Of a stretch of 64,000 bases of DNA, positions 1,377-33,580 are shown one piece after another. The first letter of the stretch is position 1; each line of letters starts with the position of its first letter. The notes beneath the pieces were generated by a model. That model was not told where the DNA came from. It searched no databases and saw only the letters and a program-made list of their open reading frames with translations. The position numbers were made by a program, and so were the translations under genes. Origin of the DNA: a virus; IMG/VR virus record IMGVR_UViG_3300043411_000952, positions 1 through 64,000 of that record, one strand, 5' to 3'.

Positions 1377-3841
1377 CGGCTTAATAATTTATCCGCGTCA
1401 AAGTATTCAGTAAGCGCAGGATTAGTGTGGTAGTAAGAGTTTAATGCTTCCAGCATACTCTCTGAGTCCACATCGACGGTATCTTCTGTGAACGACACAG
1501 ACTTAGATATTTGTTTCAATTCGTATTCAAAGCCTACCATATCGTCTATCTTATCAAATGCTTTTCTGCTGATCTGCATTTTATGGGCGTTTATATTTCT
1601 AATGAAATAATCTTTTACTTCATCTACCCTTATACGGCTGAGCATATTATCTAAATTCGCAAATGGTGTTTTACTGGACGGCCAAGACAGAAGCCCACAC
1701 GAATCTATGATGGCTTGCGCTCCCTCTTTCGAATACGCATTAGCCCGGGAAACGCTATGCTCTTGTTGAAAGTTCTCGGCCTGAGTTTGTAATGCCCATT
1801 CGGCTATCTTCTTCGTTACAAATTTTAATGTTGTTTGCGCCTTGTGTATGATATTCGAGGAAAAATTTTCGTTGATGACGGTACCTGTGTCACATAGAAT
1901 AAACGCAGATAAACTACTCTTATTGATTTGTGAAGAAGAATAACCTACCGCGTAAAATGGAAATCCTCGAAGACCTGGGATTTCTTCTCCTCTCATGTTC
2001 TGGTTTAATTGCAGTACTGTTGTCTGCCCAAGCGACGAAAAGATTTCTGTTAGCAAGCGACGCGCTTCTGAATTGTTATAAATAGGCAGAGGCTTAATTT
2101 GCATACCCAGGAACGTGCGCACAATAAATGCCGCTGCCTGGTTGAGTATGTTTACAATCACTTCAGGCAGATCATGATGCAGCGCGCACACATCCGATAT
2201 GTCAGTTGTAAAACTGGACAGTGTCGGAATAAGCGGATGTAAGTATTTTTTACCTGATCTAGATTCTTTACGGTCTGCAATGAAATAAGGAGCATAAAAA
2301 GAAGATCTGCGAGGCGACCACCCCAACATAGGAATACCTTCTGTCTTTGAAAGCTGCGCCACCTGCTCCCGGAGATAAGTAGTTAAATACTTAGCTCCAC
2401 TACGCTCCATGATGGTAGGTATATTAAGTTCTGAGCTAGCAGCACCCATGGTGGCACGTCGAGCTGCTTTTTCCAGCTCTGTAATCTTGTCTATCTCTTC
2501 CTGTTTTAAAATGAGCGGGTACTTATCATTATTAAACAGAAGATGCCCTGCATGGAAAATATCCGTGGATTCTGTGAATACTATGTTCTGCTCTAATTCA
2601 ATTGTAAAATTACTTATATTATTAGTGTATGCATCATTACTGTGCTTCTTCACTGAATACCCGTAGGGATTACTAAACAGTGTAACTTTATCGTCCTTAT
2701 ATACTGGTAACGTTTTAAAGAAGTTTCTGACTTCGTCAGCTTCCGCAAAATATCTATTGGCGTGTAGTCGCACAAGTAGTTCTTGTCGACTTTTATGATC
2801 GAGCTCAATTAGAGGAAGAATGTTACTGATAGGTATATTTTTCTTTAATTCTTTAACTAGACATTTAAGTATAAATTCATTAGCGGCTATTGCCTCGTAC
2901 TCCGCGCGTAAGCCTACTTTATTCTCAGAGACTGTCAGTTCTGGTATGTAACGTTGTAATGTACCTGCGACGCGTAAATCAGAGTGACTATCCCCGCAGG
3001 CAATATAAGTGGCGGAAGGAAGGACAAAGGATTCTCCAGCTTCCGTGGCATCTACCATCATATGCAGACATAGCATCTCCGGATTAAGGCGACTGTATTG
3101 CGTGTTTAACTTAGCCGCCTCTGCGTAAGTGTACGCTACCTTCGTTTTCTTACATCCTGGATGTCTTTGTAAAAGAGAAAAGAAAGATGTCCTAGAGGGC
3201 ATTATATTTATTTTCTCTGGTTTAGAGTCTGGCGTCTTTAGAGCCAGCAAATGGCTTATGGTATGATAATTTACAAAGTAAGGCAATACCACATAAGGTC
3301 CTGCCATGTTTATATTTTTATCAGGATATACATTCTTTATTAATTCTTTCAGCACTTCAGTTTCCTGCGCGCTAATAACAAAAACAGAATTACGTAATGC
3401 GTCCGGGTCTAAACCCTGTGCTCTCAATGCACTTCTGTATTGAATAATTTTAATGTTATTTTGTGAGCCGTTTAATGCATTCTTTAAAAAGAAATCGAAT
3501 ATTTTTCTTTTATTTTTTAATTGGCTGGTAATAAGTTTCTGATTCTTATATACAGTAGAATTCCTTAACTTATTATCTAGTATACTGTTAAGTGTTTCTA
3601 TGACACGGTCCCACCCGCAGACACCCTTAGCGACCAGGTAGTCAATACACGACCCTGCCCGGAAAGTGCATACGTTATTTTCACATACAAATTCTTTATC
3701 CAGAATGAACAATTTACTTTCGCATTTAGGACAATTTGTAGTATATTCACCACCTAGTCCTGTATGCAAGTCTCCGCCCAGCAAGTGTATTAACTCGACA
3801 GGGTTTATAATTTGATCCAAAGTTTGAACGCTCAATTCCAT
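1373..3841 (-). CDS. 822-aa protein with N-terminal Cys4 zinc finger, possibly primase-derived
   Basis: CPKC...CENNVC.FRAGSCIDYL resembles a primase Zn-binding domain; no clear catalytic motifs downstream. Confidence 0.5.
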   Translation of the reverse strand: MELSVQTLDQIINPVELIHLLGGDLHTGLGGEYTTNCPKCESKLFILDKEFVCENNVCTFRAGSCIDYLVAKGVCGWDRVIETLNSILDNKLRNSTVYKNQKLITSQLKNKRKIFDFFLKNALNGSQNNIKIIQYRSALRAQGLDPDALRNSVFVISAQETEVLKELIKNVYPDKNINMAGPYVVLPYFVNYHTISHLLALKTPDSKPEKINIMPSRTSFFSLLQRHPGCKKTKVAYTYAEAAKLNTQYSRLNPEMLCLHMMVDATEAGESFVLPSATYIACGDSHSDLRVAGTLQRYIPELTVSENKVGLRAEYEAIAANEFILKCLVKELKKNIPISNILPLIELDHKSRQELLVRLHANRYFAEADEVRNFFKTLPVYKDDKVTLFSNPYGYSVKKHSNDAYTNNISNFTIELEQNIVFTESTDIFHAGHLLFNNDKYPLILKQEEIDKITELEKAARRATMGAASSELNIPTIMERSGAKYLTTYLREQVAQLSKTEGIPMLGWSPRRSSFYAPYFIADRKESRSGKKYLHPLIPTLSSFTTDISDVCALHHDLPEVIVNILNQAAAFIVRTFLGMQIKPLPIYNNSEARRLLTEIFSSLGQTTVLQLNQNMRGEEIPGLRGFPFYAVGYSSSQINKSSLSAFILCDTGTVINENFSSNIIHKAQTTLKFVTKKIAEWALQTQAENFQQEHSVSRANAYSKEGAQAIIDSCGLLSWPSSKTPFANLDNMLSRIRVDEVKDYFIRNINAHKMQISRKAFDKIDDMVGFEYELKQISKSVSFTEDTVDVDSESMLEALNSYYHTNPALTEYFDADKLLSR

Positions 3842-27011: not shown

Positions 27012-27210
27012 GCTTACAACCAGGCTGGCTCATCTTGAGAAATTAAAAGATGAGCCAGTCATGGAAGATTTTGATGCTGGGCTTCGCGCCGCGCGTTACG
27101 ACGAGTATGTATTTATAAAAGAGGTATTGAAAGTATATGGAGAATCAAACGAAGGACAAGGTAGTACCTGTTCCAGACTACACTCTCCCGCCGTTACAGT
27201 ATCTCGATAA
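26989..27210 (+). CDS. Small hypothetical protein
   Basis: GTG-start ORF filling the gap before the polymerase gene. Confidence 0.4.
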   Translation: MDKKLNLKLTTRLAHLEKLKDEPVMEDFDAGLRAARYDEYVFIKEVLKVYGESNEGQGSTCSRLHSPAVTVSR

Positions 27211-30200
27211 GACAGGGACTGTTCGCGGGCATAATGGTGTTACATTTGTTTCTGGGGAAGGCATAAAGCCAGCCGATATAATGTTTATTACTTCCTGCGT
27301 ATCCCCGCAGGAGGCTAGTAAATTTCTTAAAGGCAGAGACGGAGGGCAGGGCGTCCGGGTGCAGCCTCGTTATCTGAGGTCAGACGCCGGTGTTATGTTC
27401 TCTGATATTTTTAATCAGGAGGGTATCGATCTTTATAAGTGCTACTACACAGCGCTGGTCAAATGGTTGCTGCCCAAGAATGAACGCATTAAGATACCGA
27501 AAGATGTAGTGGCTTGGGCGCTTCCCTCACTAGAAGAAGAGATAGCTCTCGTAAGCCCTAAGATCATTGTATGTATCGGCAAACCTGTCTTTGATCTTCT
27601 AGCAAATATAAAGCTGTCTTTGAGTGACGCCAAAAGCGGTTGGTTTTATAGCGAGAAGTACAACGCTAAAATATATCTCCTCGATGATACATATAAGCTT
27701 GTCTCTAACCCGGAGTACATTGGAAAGTTCCAGGTAGAAGCTAGAGAAATTAATAGGATGTATAAGGAGATATGTAATGTATCCACCGGACGCATTCCTT
27801 TAGAGTATGAGACAATTACTAATTCCTCTGATCTTAAAAGAGTAGTTAGCAATTGGAAACAGAATAATTTTGATGTAATTAGTGTGGACTGTGAGTGGTC
27901 TGGTAACAACCATATAGACGGTAAATTACGCAGCACGCAATTTTGCTGGGCCCCCGGTAAGGCATGTTATGTCCGCTGGATGGATGACAAGGGTAATTAC
28001 ACCTTTGATATTTCGTATAAAGAAGCAGGCGCTATACTTTCAGAGTGGTTAGATTTAGAAGATGTAAAATACATCGGGCATCACTTTGCTGCTGACGCCC
28101 CATGGTTGCATCATGTACTAGGACTTAATTGGTATGAGAAGTGTATTTTCGATACCGAGTTTGCGCAACAAACTGCTAATGAGGCCGAGGACCTTTCCTT
28201 AGAGCGAATAGCCCTGAAGTACACGGATTTAGGAAGGTATGACCTAGATCTTGTGTTGTGGGTTAAACAGAACAAGGCATTAATGGTGGATGGTGGCTAC
28301 GGCGCTATTCCGGATGAGATTCTTATACCTTATGCGTGTTTACGCCAAGAAAGTTTAGTACAGCTAGGCGATGGATCTTGGTGTAAAATTAAAGATCTAG
28401 TTAACAGTAAATATGCAGGAGAAGTTAAGGCTGTATTAAATGGTAAAGTACAGAATTGCAAAGTTACTAACTGGTACAAAGTCAATACCAGACAAAAAGT
28501 GTGGAAGAGGTTAGTAACTAAATATGCACAGAGAGGAAAGCATGGTTACTTAGGTCCGGTATTAACCCCTGATCATAAGGTAATAACGCAGAGAGGTAAG
28601 GTAGCAGTGCAGGATATTATACCTGGAAAGGATAGTATTTGTACGTCTTACAATACTTTTACGTCTACACAATTATCTGTATTTTTAGGTTGTCTACTAG
28701 GCGATGGCGGCATCGCGAGGAGAAACAAAGCGCACGCTGGTTTAGTTATGAGCCAGTGTGAAAAACGCGCTGATTATTTGAAGTGGAAAGTTAATGTACT
28801 TTTTGGTGACCCTGAAAATGTAGAATCAAAAGGTTCTTTATGCGCTTATAGATCCAAGTACACTCCATACATTGCCGCGTTATCGGATACATGGGAGAGA
28901 AAAGAGGCCTTGGCGCATAGTAAAAGAAAATTATTAATTACTGAAAATTTACTAGACCATCTTCAAGCGCCGGGAATAGCTGTCTGGTATCAAGATGATG
29001 GTAACCTAACTTGCGGTAACGAGGTACGTATTACTATTTACCATTTACAAGAGCAGGAGCTTGCCGCCTTACGTTCTTGGTTTAGAAGCAATATGGGTGT
29101 GTATGTTAAATATAGAAAAAATCAGAATCATATATGCTTTTCAGTTAAAGATTCTGTTGTTTTTTTAAATTATATTAAAGATTATATACATAATGATTGC
29201 GGATATAAAACCAATGTTCCGTATAATTTGAAGGTCAACGCGCATATACCAGGTCCTTTGTACTTTGAACCTATTGTTGGTATTAGTGACGTACCGGTCA
29301 AACCTTGTAGCGGTGATGGTATTCGTTACTGCTTAGCTGTAGATAAAGCGGAGAACTTCTTAACTAAGTCTGGTTTTGTTTCTAACTGCAAAGACGTAGA
29401 TACTGTCTTTAGAGCATGGCCAATTATTCAGCGGAGTCTGCAGGCTCAAGATCTTCTAGACTATTATAATAATATATTTCATCCGTTTGTTACGGATGTA
29501 TTTGTGAGTTTCGCCTTGGTTGGCCTTCCTATGGATGTAGCCATGATGGACGAGCTTAGAGTTTTATACACGTTTGCTAGAGACAAAATGGAAGTTATCC
29601 TGCGTGAGGAGATTCATGTAGAGGCTAAGAACTTTGTTTTAATGGCATTTGCAACTAGGTTACCTCCTGAGCTTGCTACTGAAAAATATTTAGAGTTCAT
29701 TTCTTTAATAGCTAATTCAGAGCATATGGAGGCCTGGGCGGTGCTTAAAGGATCCGCTAAAAAGCCTGATGATGTACCTAAACTTAAACATATATTCGAC
29801 CACTTTATTGACAGCGCGCATTTCAATATTAGATCTTCAACACAGTTAAAACGCTGGTTATTTAATGTTAAGTGTTACGAGCCTGTAAAGTCGACTGGTA
29901 ATAAGGAGAAAGGGCTACCTGCAACATCATGGGAAAAGATTAAGTCCATGCCGCCAGAGGCCCAGAAGAATTATAATCCTGCTGTTGATAAACAAACGCT
30001 GCAGATTTTATCTGAACAGAATAATGACGCGCTGCTTCGTAGGTTATTACAATTGAACGCTGTAGGTAATATATGTAAAGCTTTCCTTAAAGAGGCCGAC
30101 ATAGATGCTGACGGTAACGTTGTAAAAGAGAACGGGCTACATTTTTACCTATGCAGCGATAATCGTGTGCATGGGCAAATGAGTACCACAGAAACCGGAA

Positions 30201-33200
30201 GACCCCGGTGCGTCCACGGTGACACTTTAATACGTTGTTTTGATGGTTTTAAACGTATAAGAGATATTAAAATTGGTGACCTTGTCTGGACACATTTAAA
30301 CAGATGGAGAAAAGTAGAGGATACATATATTAAGCCAGCGGCCCCCATGTATAAGGTAAGTTTTGAAAATGGGGAAGTACTGTTATGTACTGAGGAACAT
30401 TTACTATTGACCGAAGCTGGAAAGTGGATATCTGTTAGAGATGTCTGTTTGCAAAAAGCATTTAAACAATCCGGAACTGAGGAAGAAAGTTGTTTCTCTT
30501 TACCGAGAGTCCTTGAGCACCGCCGAGCAAGTAGCGGAGATTTTGAATATAACTCCGCATACTACTTATCGAATACTTCGTCTAGAGTTAGGCGAGGAAG
30601 AATTCAAAAAGCTCAAAGCGATAAAATACTCGAGCTCAAAGCTGGGAGAGAAGAATCCTTGGAAAGGGAAGAGGGGGGAAGAGGCCGCGACCTGGAAGGG
30701 GGATTGCGACGATGGTTACGGTTATTTAACACGCCTAATAGATGGCCAACGTTACTTCGTACATCGTATAGTCATGGCAGAGGCGCTGGGTATACATCCC
30801 TCGCAGTTGCCGGATCATCTAGCTGTGCATCATATAGATCAGGATCGGAAAAACAACGCACTAGACAACTTAGCGCTCTGCACCACATCCGGGCACAGAG
30901 GTATCCACGAAAGATACAAACATACCGATCAGGAATTAAAATTAAAGGGGTTGTCCCTTGCGGAAGCTATCCAGTATATGACATCTCCGTAGAGGAGGAT
31001 CATTCCTACGAGGCGTCCGGTTGTTTTTCGCACAATTCTTGGAAACCAAACTCGTTGAATTGGCCTAGCTATGTTAACTCCATGATTTCTAATGGTATAG
31101 CTGGTCTTTTTGGTAAACTAAAAGAACGCGGAGAATTACCAGAAGAGTTTGAGAAGTTTATTATTAAAAATGATAAGGGGGAATACAAGAGTGAGGTACC
31201 TTCTATACGCAGTTGCGTTAAAGCTCCTGAAGGTTGGTGCTTTGTAGAGTCCGATTATCAGACTGCGGAAATTAGAGGACTAGCCTTTGTATCAGGGGAT
31301 AAAAACCTAATTGATATTGTTTGTAACCCCGATTTAAATTTTGCGGTTACTAAAGATGATAAAAAAGTTCGGCTGGCTTTTCCTCCTGAAGTGTTTCCTC
31401 CTTCCACACAGGAAGAGTATAAACACCTCCTTATTTCCCCGGATGATCCATCCTTAATAAGAAAAGATGACGGTTCTTTGAAACATCCTAAACAGGACCT
31501 ACATTGGTCTTTGGCTGAGATGGTTCATATTAAACCTAGAGAAGTACTTGACGAAAAGAAAGACCGTGGTGCTGCTAAGGTAGGTAACTTCAGCTGCGTT
31601 AATAAATATACAAAAATACGTACAGAAAAAGGTGTTCTAAGCATAGAAGACGCGATAATTTATGGTTGTACTTATGTATGGGATGGTTTAGATATGGTGT
31701 CTTATGATTCCATACAATACCAAGGAAATAGATTCACAATTAATTACCAAGGACTGTCCGCAACCCCAGACCATGTTGTCTGGCTCTCAAGTGGAGAAAA
31801 GTGTTGTTTCGGAGAAGCTGCCTTGCGAGGTCTCAGTATTAAATCGTATAGCGGCTTTGAATTGGATACGGCTGGTAGCAGACACAAGAACAATAGAACG
31901 CGCAAGAAAAGGCATCATATTTATGGTGCGGTGTCAAAGGTGTCAGAAAACAACGCGCAGGTGGTTACACAACGTGGAGGCGGGCAAAGGTCTAAAATGT
32001 CGATGCCTGTCTCCTTTGCGATACAACGACCCACGCGCGCGCACACTAGGCGCAAGGTATCAAGCTATGCGTCAAAGGTGTTTTCTAGACAGCCATGTCA
32101 GCAGCTACAATTACAAGGGGCGAGGCATAAAACTAATATTCAAAAGTCGCAGAGAATTTATTTTATGGGCGCTTCAAAGATGGCCGGATACAGACTTCAA
32201 AGGTTTGGATTTCGACAGAATAAACAACGATGGCCACTACTCGAAGGGCAACCTACGTTTGGTCACAAGGCAAGAAAATTTAAGAAATACGAGAGCTTCT
32301 CGCTGGTCCTACCGCGTACGCGCCGAGAAGTTATTAAAAGACAACCCAGGTGTGAGTGTCTCTATGAAAACGTTATGGGGCATGCTGCAAATGGGGTATT
32401 CGGAAGAAGAAATACTTCTAAGGATAAAGTCTGGAGAAATAAAGAGCCGGAAGGCAATATTAGCAAATGCGAAAGTATTGCAAGCCAGGAATTTAATAAG
32501 ATTAAATCCGGGCTTGGTTGTAGGAGAGAAACATATAATGAGTCTATATCGGAAAGGATTAACCGATCAGGATATAATAGAACATGTGGCGAAGCACGAA
32601 GAGTTAACTTTGCGTATTCGTCAGGCGAAGCAGCGCAGAGAAAACTCTTTGCAGCGATCGGCTCGTATAGGTATAGGCTTCGCGGCCAGTACTACAAGAA
32701 AGATGATACGAGAAGGTCTATCCGACGAGCAATTGCTGGCGGCGTGGGAAAAATCGTATGTAAAGTCAGAATCAATCAGGCAGAAGATAGAGAGGCTTGG
32801 CTTGAAGCTCAGCGTATCTACTACGCACAGGTTGATGAAGCAGGGCATGTCGGACGCGCAGTTAGAAGAATATTCGAAGAAAAGGGTTTTAAGCTCACAA
32901 AAGAGCCAGTATACGATATAATAAACGCAGGACCAAGGCATAGATTTGTTGCCAGTGGCTTGCTTATATCTAATTCGGCATACGGCGCGTCCGCCTCAAC
33001 CCTGGAACGCAAAATTGAACAGGATACAGGTAAGAAGCCAGAAGAAGGTACAGGTCAGCGGTTATTGAAGGCGCTTGAAAAACGTCAGCCAGTAGCACAA
33101 GACTTTTTAATTAAAATGGAACGTGTACCAGAGAAGCCCGGATATTACCGCGCAGCATCTGGAAGAATTCGTCATTTCGCTTCCCATGATCCAAAATACC

Positions 33201-33580
33201 TGGATGACATTGACGAGCATTTGACTATGGGCTTGTTTAAGTCTATGGGTAGAGAAGCTCGCAATTTCCCGATGCAGGAGAGTGTAGCTGCCACCGCTGC
33301 GCGAGCAGGTAAATGGCTGCTAGATGCTTACATCAAGTTAAATATGCAGGCTAGACCATTGATTATTTTATATGATTCCGTTGTTACTCTTTGTCCACTT
33401 GAAGAACGATTTAAGGTTGCGCAATTGCACCAGCTCTTTATGACGGATGAGAACACATGGGAGTACCATGGAAGAAAAATGTCGTACCCTATCGACAGCG
33501 ACTTCGTATATCGTTGGTCGGCTAAACCTGATAAAGATGATAAAAAATTGCTAGAAGATAAAACTTACAAAACCAACTGA
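27137..33580 (+). CDS. polA: Family A DNA polymerase with UDG-like N-terminus, 3'-5' exonuclease and 3 inteins (~1061 aa after splicing)
   Basis: ExoI VDCE, ExoIII YA|CKD, TETGR, motif A SDYQTAEIR, motif B R.AAK.GNFS|SAYG, NFPMQ, motif C LYDS. Confidence 0.93.
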   Translation: MENQTKDKVVPVPDYTLPPLQYLDKTGTVRGHNGVTFVSGEGIKPADIMFITSCVSPQEASKFLKGRDGGQGVRVQPRYLRSDAGVMFSDIFNQEGIDLYKCYYTALVKWLLPKNERIKIPKDVVAWALPSLEEEIALVSPKIIVCIGKPVFDLLANIKLSLSDAKSGWFYSEKYNAKIYLLDDTYKLVSNPEYIGKFQVEAREINRMYKEICNVSTGRIPLEYETITNSSDLKRVVSNWKQNNFDVISVDCEWSGNNHIDGKLRSTQFCWAPGKACYVRWMDDKGNYTFDISYKEAGAILSEWLDLEDVKYIGHHFAADAPWLHHVLGLNWYEKCIFDTEFAQQTANEAEDLSLERIALKYTDLGRYDLDLVLWVKQNKALMVDGGYGAIPDEILIPYACLRQESLVQLGDGSWCKIKDLVNSKYAGEVKAVLNGKVQNCKVTNWYKVNTRQKVWKRLVTKYAQRGKHGYLGPVLTPDHKVITQRGKVAVQDIIPGKDSICTSYNTFTSTQLSVFLGCLLGDGGIARRNKAHAGLVMSQCEKRADYLKWKVNVLFGDPENVESKGSLCAYRSKYTPYIAALSDTWERKEALAHSKRKLLITENLLDHLQAPGIAVWYQDDGNLTCGNEVRITIYHLQEQELAALRSWFRSNMGVYVKYRKNQNHICFSVKDSVVFLNYIKDYIHNDCGYKTNVPYNLKVNAHIPGPLYFEPIVGISDVPVKPCSGDGIRYCLAVDKAENFLTKSGFVSNCKDVDTVFRAWPIIQRSLQAQDLLDYYNNIFHPFVTDVFVSFALVGLPMDVAMMDELRVLYTFARDKMEVILREEIHVEAKNFVLMAFATRLPPELATEKYLEFISLIANSEHMEAWAVLKGSAKKPDDVPKLKHIFDHFIDSAHFNIRSSTQLKRWLFNVKCYEPVKSTGNKEKGLPATSWEKIKSMPPEAQKNYNPAVDKQTLQILSEQNNDALLRRLLQLNAVGNICKAFLKEADIDADGNVVKENGLHFYLCSDNRVHGQMSTTETGRPRCVHGDTLIRCFDGFKRIRDIKIGDLVWTHLNRWRKVEDTYIKPAAPMYKVSFENGEVLLCTEEHLLLTEAGKWISVRDVCLQKAFKQSGTEEESCFSLPRVLEHRRASSGDFEYNSAYYLSNTSSRVRRGRIQKAQSDKILELKAGREESLEREEGGRGRDLEGGLRRWLRLFNTPNRWPTLLRTSYSHGRGAGYTSLAVAGSSSCASYRSGSEKQRTRQLSALHHIRAQRYPRKIQTYRSGIKIKGVVPCGSYPVYDISVEEDHSYEASGCFSHNSWKPNSLNWPSYVNSMISNGIAGLFGKLKERGELPEEFEKFIIKNDKGEYKSEVPSIRSCVKAPEGWCFVESDYQTAEIRGLAFVSGDKNLIDIVCNPDLNFAVTKDDKKVRLAFPPEVFPPSTQEEYKHLLISPDDPSLIRKDDGSLKHPKQDLHWSLAEMVHIKPREVLDEKKDRGAAKVGNFSCVNKYTKIRTEKGVLSIEDAIIYGCTYVWDGLDMVSYDSIQYQGNRFTINYQGLSATPDHVVWLSSGEKCCFGEAALRGLSIKSYSGFELDTAGSRHKNNRTRKKRHHIYGAVSKVSENNAQVVTQRGGGQRSKMSMPVSFAIQRPTRAHTRRKVSSYASKVFSRQPCQQLQLQGARHKTNIQKSQRIYFMGASKMAGYRLQRFGFRQNKQRWPLLEGQPTFGHKARKFKKYESFSLVLPRTRREVIKRQPRCECLYENVMGHAANGVFGRRNTSKDKVWRNKEPEGNISKCESIASQEFNKIKSGLGCRRETYNESISERINRSGYNRTCGEARRVNFAYSSGEAAQRKLFAAIGSYRYRLRGQYYKKDDTRRSIRRAIAGGVGKIVCKVRINQAEDREAWLEAQRIYYAQVDEAGHVGRAVRRIFEEKGFKLTKEPVYDIINAGPRHRFVASGLLISNSAYGASASTLERKIEQDTGKKPEEGTGQRLLKALEKRQPVAQDFLIKMERVPEKPGYYRAASGRIRHFASHDPKYLDDIDEHLTMGLFKSMGREARNFPMQESVAATAARAGKWLLDAYIKLNMQARPLIILYDSVVTLCPLEERFKVAQLHQLFMTDENTWEYHGRKMSYPIDSDFVYRWSAKPDKDDKKLLEDKTYKTN
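28337..29386 (+). mobile_element. Pol intein 1 (350 aa, LAGLIDADG)
   Basis: CLRQES...LTPDH...GCLLGDG...WYQDDG...FVSN|C. Confidence 0.92.
30209..31036 (+). mobile_element. Pol intein 2 (276 aa) with out-of-frame HNH gene
   Basis: CVHGDT...CTEEH...VYDISV....SY.....SHN|S. Confidence 0.9.
30441..30992 (+). CDS. HNH endonuclease in the +1 frame inside Pol intein 2
   Basis: HTH-like N-terminus, GEKNPW/WKG motif, HRIVM, VHHIDQDRKNNALDNL.L....H...H. Confidence 0.85.
   Translation: MSVCKKHLNNPELRKKVVSLYRESLSTAEQVAEILNITPHTTYRILRLELGEEEFKKLKAIKYSSSKLGEKNPWKGKRGEEAATWKGDCDDGYGYLTRLIDGQRYFVHRIVMAEALGIHPSQLPDHLAVHHIDQDRKNNALDNLALCTTSGHRGIHERYKHTDQELKLKGLSLAEAIQYMTSP
31595..32974 (+). mobile_element. 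Pol intein 3 (460 aa) with out-of-frame HNH gene
   Basis: CVNKYT...ATPDH...VYDIINAGPRHRF.....ISN|S. Confidence 0.9.
31704..32921 (+). CDS. HNH endonuclease in the +1 frame inside Pol intein 3 (true start may be later)
   Basis: CQRC...CRC, YQAMRQRC......YNYKGRGI, DRINNDGHYSKGNLRLVT..EN.RN, repeated C-terminal helical units. Confidence 0.85.
   Translation: MIPYNTKEIDSQLITKDCPQPQTMLSGSQVEKSVVSEKLPCEVSVLNRIAALNWIRLVADTRTIERARKGIIFMVRCQRCQKTTRRWLHNVEAGKGLKCRCLSPLRYNDPRARTLGARYQAMRQRCFLDSHVSSYNYKGRGIKLIFKSRREFILWALQRWPDTDFKGLDFDRINNDGHYSKGNLRLVTRQENLRNTRASRWSYRVRAEKLLKDNPGVSVSMKTLWGMLQMGYSEEEILLRIKSGEIKSRKAILANAKVLQARNLIRLNPGLVVGEKHIMSLYRKGLTDQDIIEHVAKHEELTLRIRQAKQRRENSLQRSARIGIGFAASTTRKMIREGLSDEQLLAAWEKSYVKSESIRQKIERLGLKLSVSTTHRLMKQGMSDAQLEEYSKKRVLSSQKSQYTI

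Follow-up and report, generated by a model that had tools for sequence, protein, structure and literature searches.

The DNA considered here, called the window in the following, is a stretch of 64,000 nucleotides (nt), i.e., positions 1 to 64,000 of the virus record IMGVR_UViG_3300043411_000952, a 74-kb entry of IMG/VR which is about 41% complete according to CheckV. It contains a gene for a family A DNA polymerase (Pol A), whose three inteins lie in one continuous frame. The third of them, intein 3, is inserted in polymerase motif B and is the main subject of this report, since a second open reading frame (ORF), shifted by +1, is nested within it and encodes a putative homing endonuclease, P0002. 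An earlier reading, made from the letters of the window and termed here the sequence-only reading, had drawn attention to this arrangement. Coordinates are compiled in Table 1; loci used for comparison carry L numbers.

Intein 3 and the gene nested within it

The borders given for intein 3 in the sequence-only reading, 31595 to 32974, proved to be exact: the codon TGC of Cys1 occupies 31595–31597, the codon AAT of Asn460 occupies 32972–32974, and Ser+1 follows at 32975. The residues of a class-1 intein are present, namely Cys1, the block B motif TPDH (T57, H60), D441 in block F, Asn460 and Ser+1, and the columns of Cys1, T57/H60, Asn460 and Ser+1 are invariant across 39 relatives. The penultimate residue is Ser rather than His, at a position which is variable in the family. 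An uninterrupted motif B is found in the close relatives L165 and L167, where it reads KVGNFSSAYGAS; these are intein-free alleles with 96–97% identity in the C-extein, and their open spans of 1063 codons match the length of 1061 amino acids (aa) which is predicted for the window polymerase after removal of its three inteins.

Modelling of the intein in the polymerase frame with AlphaFold2 (AF2) gave confident structure at residues 1–89 and about 401–460 only. The filler between them had values of the predicted local distance difference test (pLDDT) which were nearly all below 50; residues 168–182 and 368–382 reached 54–58, and a single short helix was predicted at residues 369–381. The description of this part as R/K/S-rich filler in the sequence-only reading was borne out, since R, K and S together make up 31% of residues 90–395 versus 19% of the exteins, and the region is predicted to be disordered. 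Columns are conserved in it only where the nuclease motif DRIxNDGxY casts its shadow into this frame. All 33 chains which matched the model structurally with Z ≥ 2 were inteins or Hint domains, headed by the VidaL intein (6vgw) and the Mtu RecA intein (2imz), both at Z 13.5 over about 115 aligned residues. Judged from the model, the ends of intein 3 form a Hint domain, and intein 3 is a class-1 intein.

The +1 frame is open from 31692 to 32921, following a TAG at 31689–31691, and its first ATG is at 31704. It is closed by a TAA at 32919–32921, which arises from the codons ATA ATA of block F (VYDIINAGPRH, beginning at 32909), as had been recognized before. The stretch open in both frames measures 1.23 kb, in agreement with the earlier figure of about 1.2 kb. 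For an estimate of chance, the 405-aa ORF was recoded synonymously 20,000 times with the codon usage of the window, and stops in the polymerase frame were counted; none is observed, versus a mean of 36 (minimum 18) in the recodings, and thus the dual open frames are not due to chance. The third frame over the same DNA contains 42 stops, and where the nuclease is free-standing in relatives, the median in the equivalent frame is 10 stops per 100 codons.

Substitutions were compared between the window and L005 and L088, two relatives in which this intein occupies the identical site. At positions 1/2/3 of the polymerase codons, the differences amounted to 0.41/0.22/0.16 in the overlap, versus 0.32/0.26/0.53 in the N-terminal splicing domain, 0.11/0.11/0.68 in blocks F and G, and 0.18/0.16/0.47 in the exteins; the peak of substitutions is therefore at the wobble position of the nuclease inside the overlap and at that of the polymerase elsewhere. 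Within the overlap, the nuclease frame had an amino acid identity of 72%, whereas the polymerase frame (49%) did no better than the non-coding third frame (51%). The nuclease frame is under purifying selection, and in the polymerase frame there is selection against stops only. The same intein was also found in contigs from groundwater and wastewater of four further studies, with zero indels inside the intein. No junction skipping intein 3 was seen in four sequencing runs; wastewater runs labelled 'RNA-Seq cDNA' probably consist of DNA.

A short segment at the end of the overlap behaved differently. Divergence from L005 and L088 was 9–10% in the last 48 nuclease codons (32775–32918), compared to 30–32% in the rest of the overlap. 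The changes there are spread over the codon positions, and both frames are predicted to be helical with high confidence; this segment may be under constraint in both frames.

The AF2 model of P0002 had a mean pLDDT of 84.6, with 239 residues above 90; the protein is predicted to be structured from about residue 41 and disordered at residues 1–35. It comprises a zinc ribbon, which L005 and L088, the closest relatives, have lost, an HNH-like core, and four helix-turn-helix (HTH)-like repeats, which correspond to the repeated helical units of the sequence-only reading and are presumed from the model to be DNA-recognition modules. The HNH-type motifs quoted there from the +1 frame (YQAMRQRC, YKGRGI, DRINNDGHY..GN.R) are indeed found, in columns which are invariant across the family. 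Residues Y137, R140, G141, R172, N175, Y179 and N183 are invariant across the nuclease family, and D171 is nearly so. P0002 matched PHROG families annotated as HNH endonuclease (1.3e-18 and 6.3e-17), 12 database homologues were found, and the profile of the nuclease family matched I-HmuI (1u3e) weakly (E = 0.097). The best structural match of the core was PacI (3m7k; Z 6.5, root-mean-square deviation 2.4, 77 residues), while a Foldseek search of the PDB with the whole 405-aa model yielded nothing at E ≤ 0.001, and blastn of the region against phage records gave no match. PacI is an active HNH enzyme with Tyr as general base (PMC4081073). Since Y137 and Y179 are invariant, nuclease activity of P0002 appears plausible by analogy.

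The sequence-only reading had left the start of the nested gene ambiguous between 31704, 31773 and 31923. From the comparison of loci, the ATG at 31704 is most likely the start; in its class (10 loci), the first ATG is conserved at this place, 22.7 codons upstream of the block B His. The ATG at 31923 is disfavoured, because initiation there would cut a confident beta-hairpin of P0002, and because this codon reads ACG (T31924C) in contigs of about 97% identity from three studies. In 17 non-redundant loci of relatives the first ATG is situated 8.7 codons before the block B His and is formed by TAT GAx of a conserved Tyr-Asp/Glu. It is preceded by a match resembling a Shine-Dalgarno (SD) sequence of at least 4 nt in 17/17 and of at least 5 nt in 16/17 of these loci, typically GGAGGT, which is derived from codons for Lys/Arg-Glu-Val; the background rate of such matches at other ATGs of the +1 frame was 8.8%. 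SD and ATG together were present in 31 of 48 full inteins versus one of eight mini-inteins free of remnants (Fisher p = 0.016; sample fetched by the N-domain, see below). These signals of the relatives, which are built from splicing-domain codons, favour independent initiation of the nuclease over frameshifting. Within the window, a strong SD occurs in only 13% of the long ORFs, and a promoter scan gave 3 sites compared to 2.7 expected.

In relatives the nuclease has its stop at one of two places: in block F, 3–4 codons beyond the Val of VYDI, or 3.7 codons short of the intein end. No more than about half of them use the block F position and the others run on to block G; in the loci compared, the block F stop is thus a recurrent, not a universal solution.

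Table 1. Positions of the polymerase gene, its inteins and the nested genes in the window, and of corresponding features in other loci (slashes in sequences mark intein borders).
Feature	Position	Strand	Remarks
Intein 3	31595..32974	+	460 aa, in Pol A motif B, KVGNFS/C...N/SAYGAS
N-terminal Hint half, polymerase frame	31595..31861	+	residues 1-89, pLDDT 96-98
Polymerase-frame filler	31862..32779	+	residues 90-395, R/K/S-rich, stop-free
Helices before block F and C-terminal splicing half (blocks F, G)	32780..32974	+	pLDDT >90 from about residue 401
Nested +1 gene, P0002	31704..32921	+	405 aa, HNH-like putative homing endonuclease
Other candidate nuclease starts	31773 (ATG), 31857 (TTG), 31923 (ATG)	+	31923 disfavoured
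Zinc ribbon	31872..32006	+	P0002 residues 57-101; CxxC...CxC, Cys 77, 80, 99, 101
Predicted HNH-like beta-beta-alpha core	32022..32294	+	P0002 residues 107-197
Four tandem HTH-like repeats	32343..32918	+	P0002 residues about 214-405
Family A DNA polymerase gene	27137..33580	+	2147-aa precursor, three inteins; frame continuous
Intein 1	28337-29386	+	canonical; in-frame LAGLIDADG_2 domain (Pfam 4.6e-13)
Intein 2	30209-31036	+	overprinted in +1 by ORF 30441-30992
Nested HNH ORF, Streptococcus phage Javan113	L001 (MK448670.1) 2528-3301		257 aa; record annotates 'DNA polymerase' only
Nested HNH ORF, Gardnerella phage vB_Gva_AB1	L002 (MW387018.1) 2498-3301		267 aa; record annotates 'DNA polymerase' only
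Full intein in motif B, one codon upstream	L169 6041-6997		own +1 HNH; KVGNF/C...SN/SSAYGA
Fractured Pol A genes	L046 561-3136; L050 863-3450; L083 2502-5056		same nuclease lineage
Pol A with layout of intein 2	L171 897-3749		another phage

Relatives of the intein and its allelic states

A query with the single sequence of P0002 retrieved no related loci, while an alignment query recovered relatives; in this way 164 metagenomic and viral loci were fetched by the nuclease alignment. A nuclease was regarded as nested when it lay, on the same strand, inside a frame that is free of stops over 300 codons or more. This layout was present in 63 of the 164 loci, 61 of them with an offset of +1. The nested loci are the closest relatives of P0002, and distant relatives are free-standing. 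A second sample, which is unbiased with respect to the nuclease, consisted of 80 loci for which the intein N-domain served as the only query. It contained 54 full inteins with a +1 HNH, one full intein with a +2 HNH, 12 mini-inteins, four deletion remnants and nine loci which were cut or unclear, so that the out-of-frame layout accounts for 55/80. An in-frame HNH version of intein 3 was looked for among the 164 and the 80 loci, and was not found (0 loci in the N-domain sample). In IMG/VR there are at least 477 matches to the N-domain.

The inteins are homologous across the family, with the consensus CIAEGxLVLT...WDGxEWV...ATPDH...VYDIxNAGPRHRF. Their insertion sites are motif B, motif A and a TGR/NLQN site of Pol A, as well as superfamily 2 (SF2) helicases and one protein without a Pfam match. 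Intein 3 of the window is the largest member seen, with its 460 aa and four HTH repeats. By tblastn with P0002, matches were obtained inside annotated DNA polymerase genes of two isolated phages, Streptococcus phage Javan113 and Gardnerella phage vB_Gva_AB1, which possess the same intein site, the filler and the +1 ORF (Table 1); the intein itself is likewise unannotated in both GenBank records. On the tree built from nuclease cores, 6 label changes suffice for the nested state, compared to 41.7 with shuffled labels, and 48 of 51 nested forms fall within one subtree. Thus, as far as can be judged from the tree, the overprinted layout was mostly inherited and not reinvented within the family.

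As a side observation, one helicase-intein locus was encountered five times (L029–L033), with a spacing of about 49.5 kb, in the 301-kb contig FUFK010040853.1, which looks like a concatemeric assembly of a phage genome of about 49.5 kb.

In the polymerase clade of the window, the motif B site is empty in L165 and L167; it is occupied by a full intein in the window, L005/L168, L088/L166 and L172, and by a mini-intein of 158 aa, at the exact site of the window, in L173. One codon upstream, the site is taken by another lineage of the same family, as a full intein with its own +1 HNH in L169 and as a mini-intein in L233. This sporadic pattern of full, mini, remnant and empty states fits active homing. 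Three further Pol A genes (L046, L050, L083) are fractured: N-extein and N-terminal intein part (Int-N) end at a stop, the nuclease overlaps Int-N in the +1 frame, and a Met-initiated C-terminal intein part (Int-C) with the C-extein starts inside the 3' end of the nuclease, in the third frame. These three form a supported clade inside the clade of nested nucleases. The polymerase of the window is not fractured, since its host frame is unbroken from 27137 to 33580.

Intein 2 of the window is overprinted as well. Its nested gene encodes P0003, a protein of 183 aa with an HTH and an HNH_3 domain (Pfam 3.9e-10), also in the +1 frame. Its Hint lineage is other than that of intein 3, and Pfam HNH_3 matches P0003 alone and not P0002, which upholds the earlier statement that the two cases are independent. 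The layout of intein 2 recurs in the Pol A of another phage (L171), with a copy that is 48% identical. The sequence-only reading had gone on to suggest a repeatable route, as both genes have the same offset and end on a stop supplied by block F. This holds in part: two unrelated pairs of intein and HNH gene at +1 in one polymerase gene do show at least two origins. Against it stand the inheritance of the layout within the family, the existence of +2 offsets (L132, L134, L218), and the use of the block F stop by only about half of the relatives.

Explanations of the arrangement

Very probably, intein 3 is a mobile class-1 intein without an in-frame endonuclease, which carries a separately translated homing endonuclease overprinted in its +1 frame. 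Across the nuclease gene, the polymerase frame would encode a disordered linker free of stops, which connects the two halves of the Hint domain, and the precursor would still splice to the polymerase of 1061 aa; the intact residues and the frame kept open by selection suggest such splicing. The nuclease would be translated on its own, with a start within codons of the N-terminal splicing domain (most likely ATG 31704), and would end on the stop made from block F codons; with both start and stop in splicing codons, the whole cassette, including its translation signals, would be contained inside the intein. P0002 would then cut intein-free motif B alleles and so drive homing. Splicing, independent initiation and nuclease activity are the parts of this explanation which we infer. 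Several points weigh against it: splicing across a disordered linker of about 300 residues is an assumption; the SD before 31704 is weak (GGTG); in an alignment by eye, the position of the general-base His of HNH_3 is taken by R172, invariantly in the whole family; no Pfam HNH model matches P0002 at E ≤ 0.1, where only DUF433 appeared, below its cut-off; and the structural match to PacI is middling.

The replacement of His by R172, with the implied loss of the general base, together with the missing Pfam match and the low significance for I-HmuI, could also mean that the +1 protein descends from an HNH enzyme but only binds DNA and lacks nuclease activity, acting, e.g., as a regulator or a helper in splicing or homing. 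This is considered unlikely, as the best structural match, PacI, is active with a Tyr (PMC4081073) which could have its counterpart in the invariant Y137 or Y179, as the sporadic alleles fit active homing, and as free-standing relatives also occur in phage contigs, like homing endonuclease genes. The copy in the window might instead be a fixed and decaying passenger, whose nuclease ORF has lost its expression or its purpose but has so far remained free of stops. Decay after fixation is predicted by the model of the homing cycle, and mini-inteins and remnants do exist in the family; yet every invariant residue of the family is intact in P0002, purifying selection is seen versus relatives at 69% identity, and empty alleles circulate in close relatives, so that targets exist. 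We regard this possibility as quite improbable.

The unsettled start and the weak SD, and the +1 frame being open from 31692, within the N-domain, leave some room for the proposal in the sequence-only reading that the nuclease is produced by programmed +1 frameshifting out of the intein N-domain, which would yield a fusion of Hint-N and HNH at the expense of the polymerase. Such a shift would be confined to a short window after the TAG at 31689–31691; moreover, SD and ATG are conserved in relatives, the relatives with split inteins (L046, L050, L083) carry the same nuclease lineage as a separate ORF and must translate it separately, and the disorder predicted for residues 1–35 of P0002 is expected of a free N-terminus. 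Frameshifting is therefore unnecessary as an explanation and very improbable. An assembly error had been named at the outset as a finding that would overturn the dual frames, through sequencing frameshifts which split a truly in-frame HNH domain, a possibility which exists a priori in any metagenomic contig. This would require a pair of compensating errors here and again in more than 100 independent loci; contigs of four other studies are without an indel inside the intein, and the isolated phages Javan113 and vB_Gva_AB1 share the layout. With these independent contigs and the recurrence across loci, assembly error as the cause is refuted.

If the overprinted nuclease is accepted, a further idea may be put forward tentatively, with rather less confidence than the explanation itself. 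The overprinted intein could be a transitional form, still extant, that stands between contiguous inteins and the split inteins found in nature. Its start (SD and ATG) and stop would have been carved from conserved splicing-block codons, so that intein and nuclease move as an indivisible cassette; a single indel in the filler would produce a fractured gene with a split intein, as in L046, L050 and L083. A start inside a heavily translated ORF may also throttle expression of the nuclease.

Known systems and the remainder of the polymerase gene

Out-of-frame endonucleases of inteins are already known, from a proposal of 1998 and from preprints of 2025–26. In actinophages, Gosselin, Arsenault and Gogarten (bioRxiv 10.1101/2025.01.02.630785) described inteins with the endonuclease in another frame, an endonuclease VII-like one in 'frame 3' and also antisense LAGLIDADG and Vsr-like genes; they proposed an origin by invasion of a free-standing endonuclease gene, with elements still spreading. 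Intein 3 shares with these the contiguous intein, the unstructured in-frame middle, the endonuclease frame on the same strand, and DNA polymerase among the hosts. It differs from their same-strand case in its His-less HNH-like nuclease at +1, with zinc ribbon and HTH repeats. The cyanobacterial dnaX intein contains an out-of-frame LAGLIDADG in a +2 ORF (Phillips et al., bioRxiv 10.64898/2026.09.14.751524), for which the first proposal was made by Gorbalenya in 1998 (Nucleic Acids Res 26:1741). That case and the present one share an overlapping ORF, an in-frame region which is disordered, alleles in full, mini and empty form side by side, and purifying selection on the nuclease frame with relaxation on the intein frame; in contrast to dnaX, with its LAGLIDADG at +2 in a cellular host gene, the family described here has an HNH-like nuclease at +1 in phage genes of several families.

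The fractured genes of Dassa et al. (2009, PMC2677866) have a split intein whose two halves are separated by a free-standing endonuclease gene. As in these, the endonuclease gene here is lodged at the endonuclease slot of the intein; overlap of the nuclease 3' end with the start of the C-intein is the exact layout of L046, L050 and L083. The window differs by its unbroken host frame, for which cis-splicing from one precursor is predicted, and the endonucleases of Dassa et al. are GIY-YIG and Vsr-like, whereas those of the window and of L046, L050 and L083 are HNH-like. A 'hidden' out-of-frame HNH was described in the methylase of phage ShiLan (Arsenault et al. 2025, PMC11855218); there, too, it lies in a stop-free host ORF with the stop at the very end of the insert, but splicing domains are missing, while a complete Hint domain flanks the nuclease gene of intein 3. 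PacI, the best structural match of the P0002 core, likewise lacks the general-base His (the catalytic residues of P0002 being our inference), and with the homing HNH enzymes of phages P0002 shares the modular construction from nuclease and DNA-binding repeats; it has no significant sequence similarity to PacI or I-HmuI.

No paper on this HNH/+1 intein family was found in the literature. Specific for the window are two unrelated overprinted inteins among three in one polymerase, which makes it an extreme case. Automatic annotation overlooks nested genes, and inteins of this type are consequently taken for mini-inteins or for elements in decay. With full, remnant, mini, empty and split forms all occurring naturally, the family lends itself to tests of the homing cycle and of how split inteins arose; it is also a source of compact Hint domains which would tolerate a disordered insert of 300 residues, and of modular HNH enzymes (as predicted) aimed at polymerase and helicase motifs.

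In the remainder of the polymerase precursor, Pfam detected a UDG-like domain, a 3'-5' exonuclease and DNA_pol_A. Intein 1, with its canonical in-frame endonuclease domain, is absent from the close relatives L165–L169, and inteins 1 and 2 are both absent from L005 and L088. Near the polymerase C-terminus, contigs X2 and X10, from two other studies, lack one nucleotide of the window at 33479 and have one extra nucleotide after 33484. The two indels compensate each other and change about two codons; the cause is strain variation or, alternatively, a small error confined to one of the assemblies.

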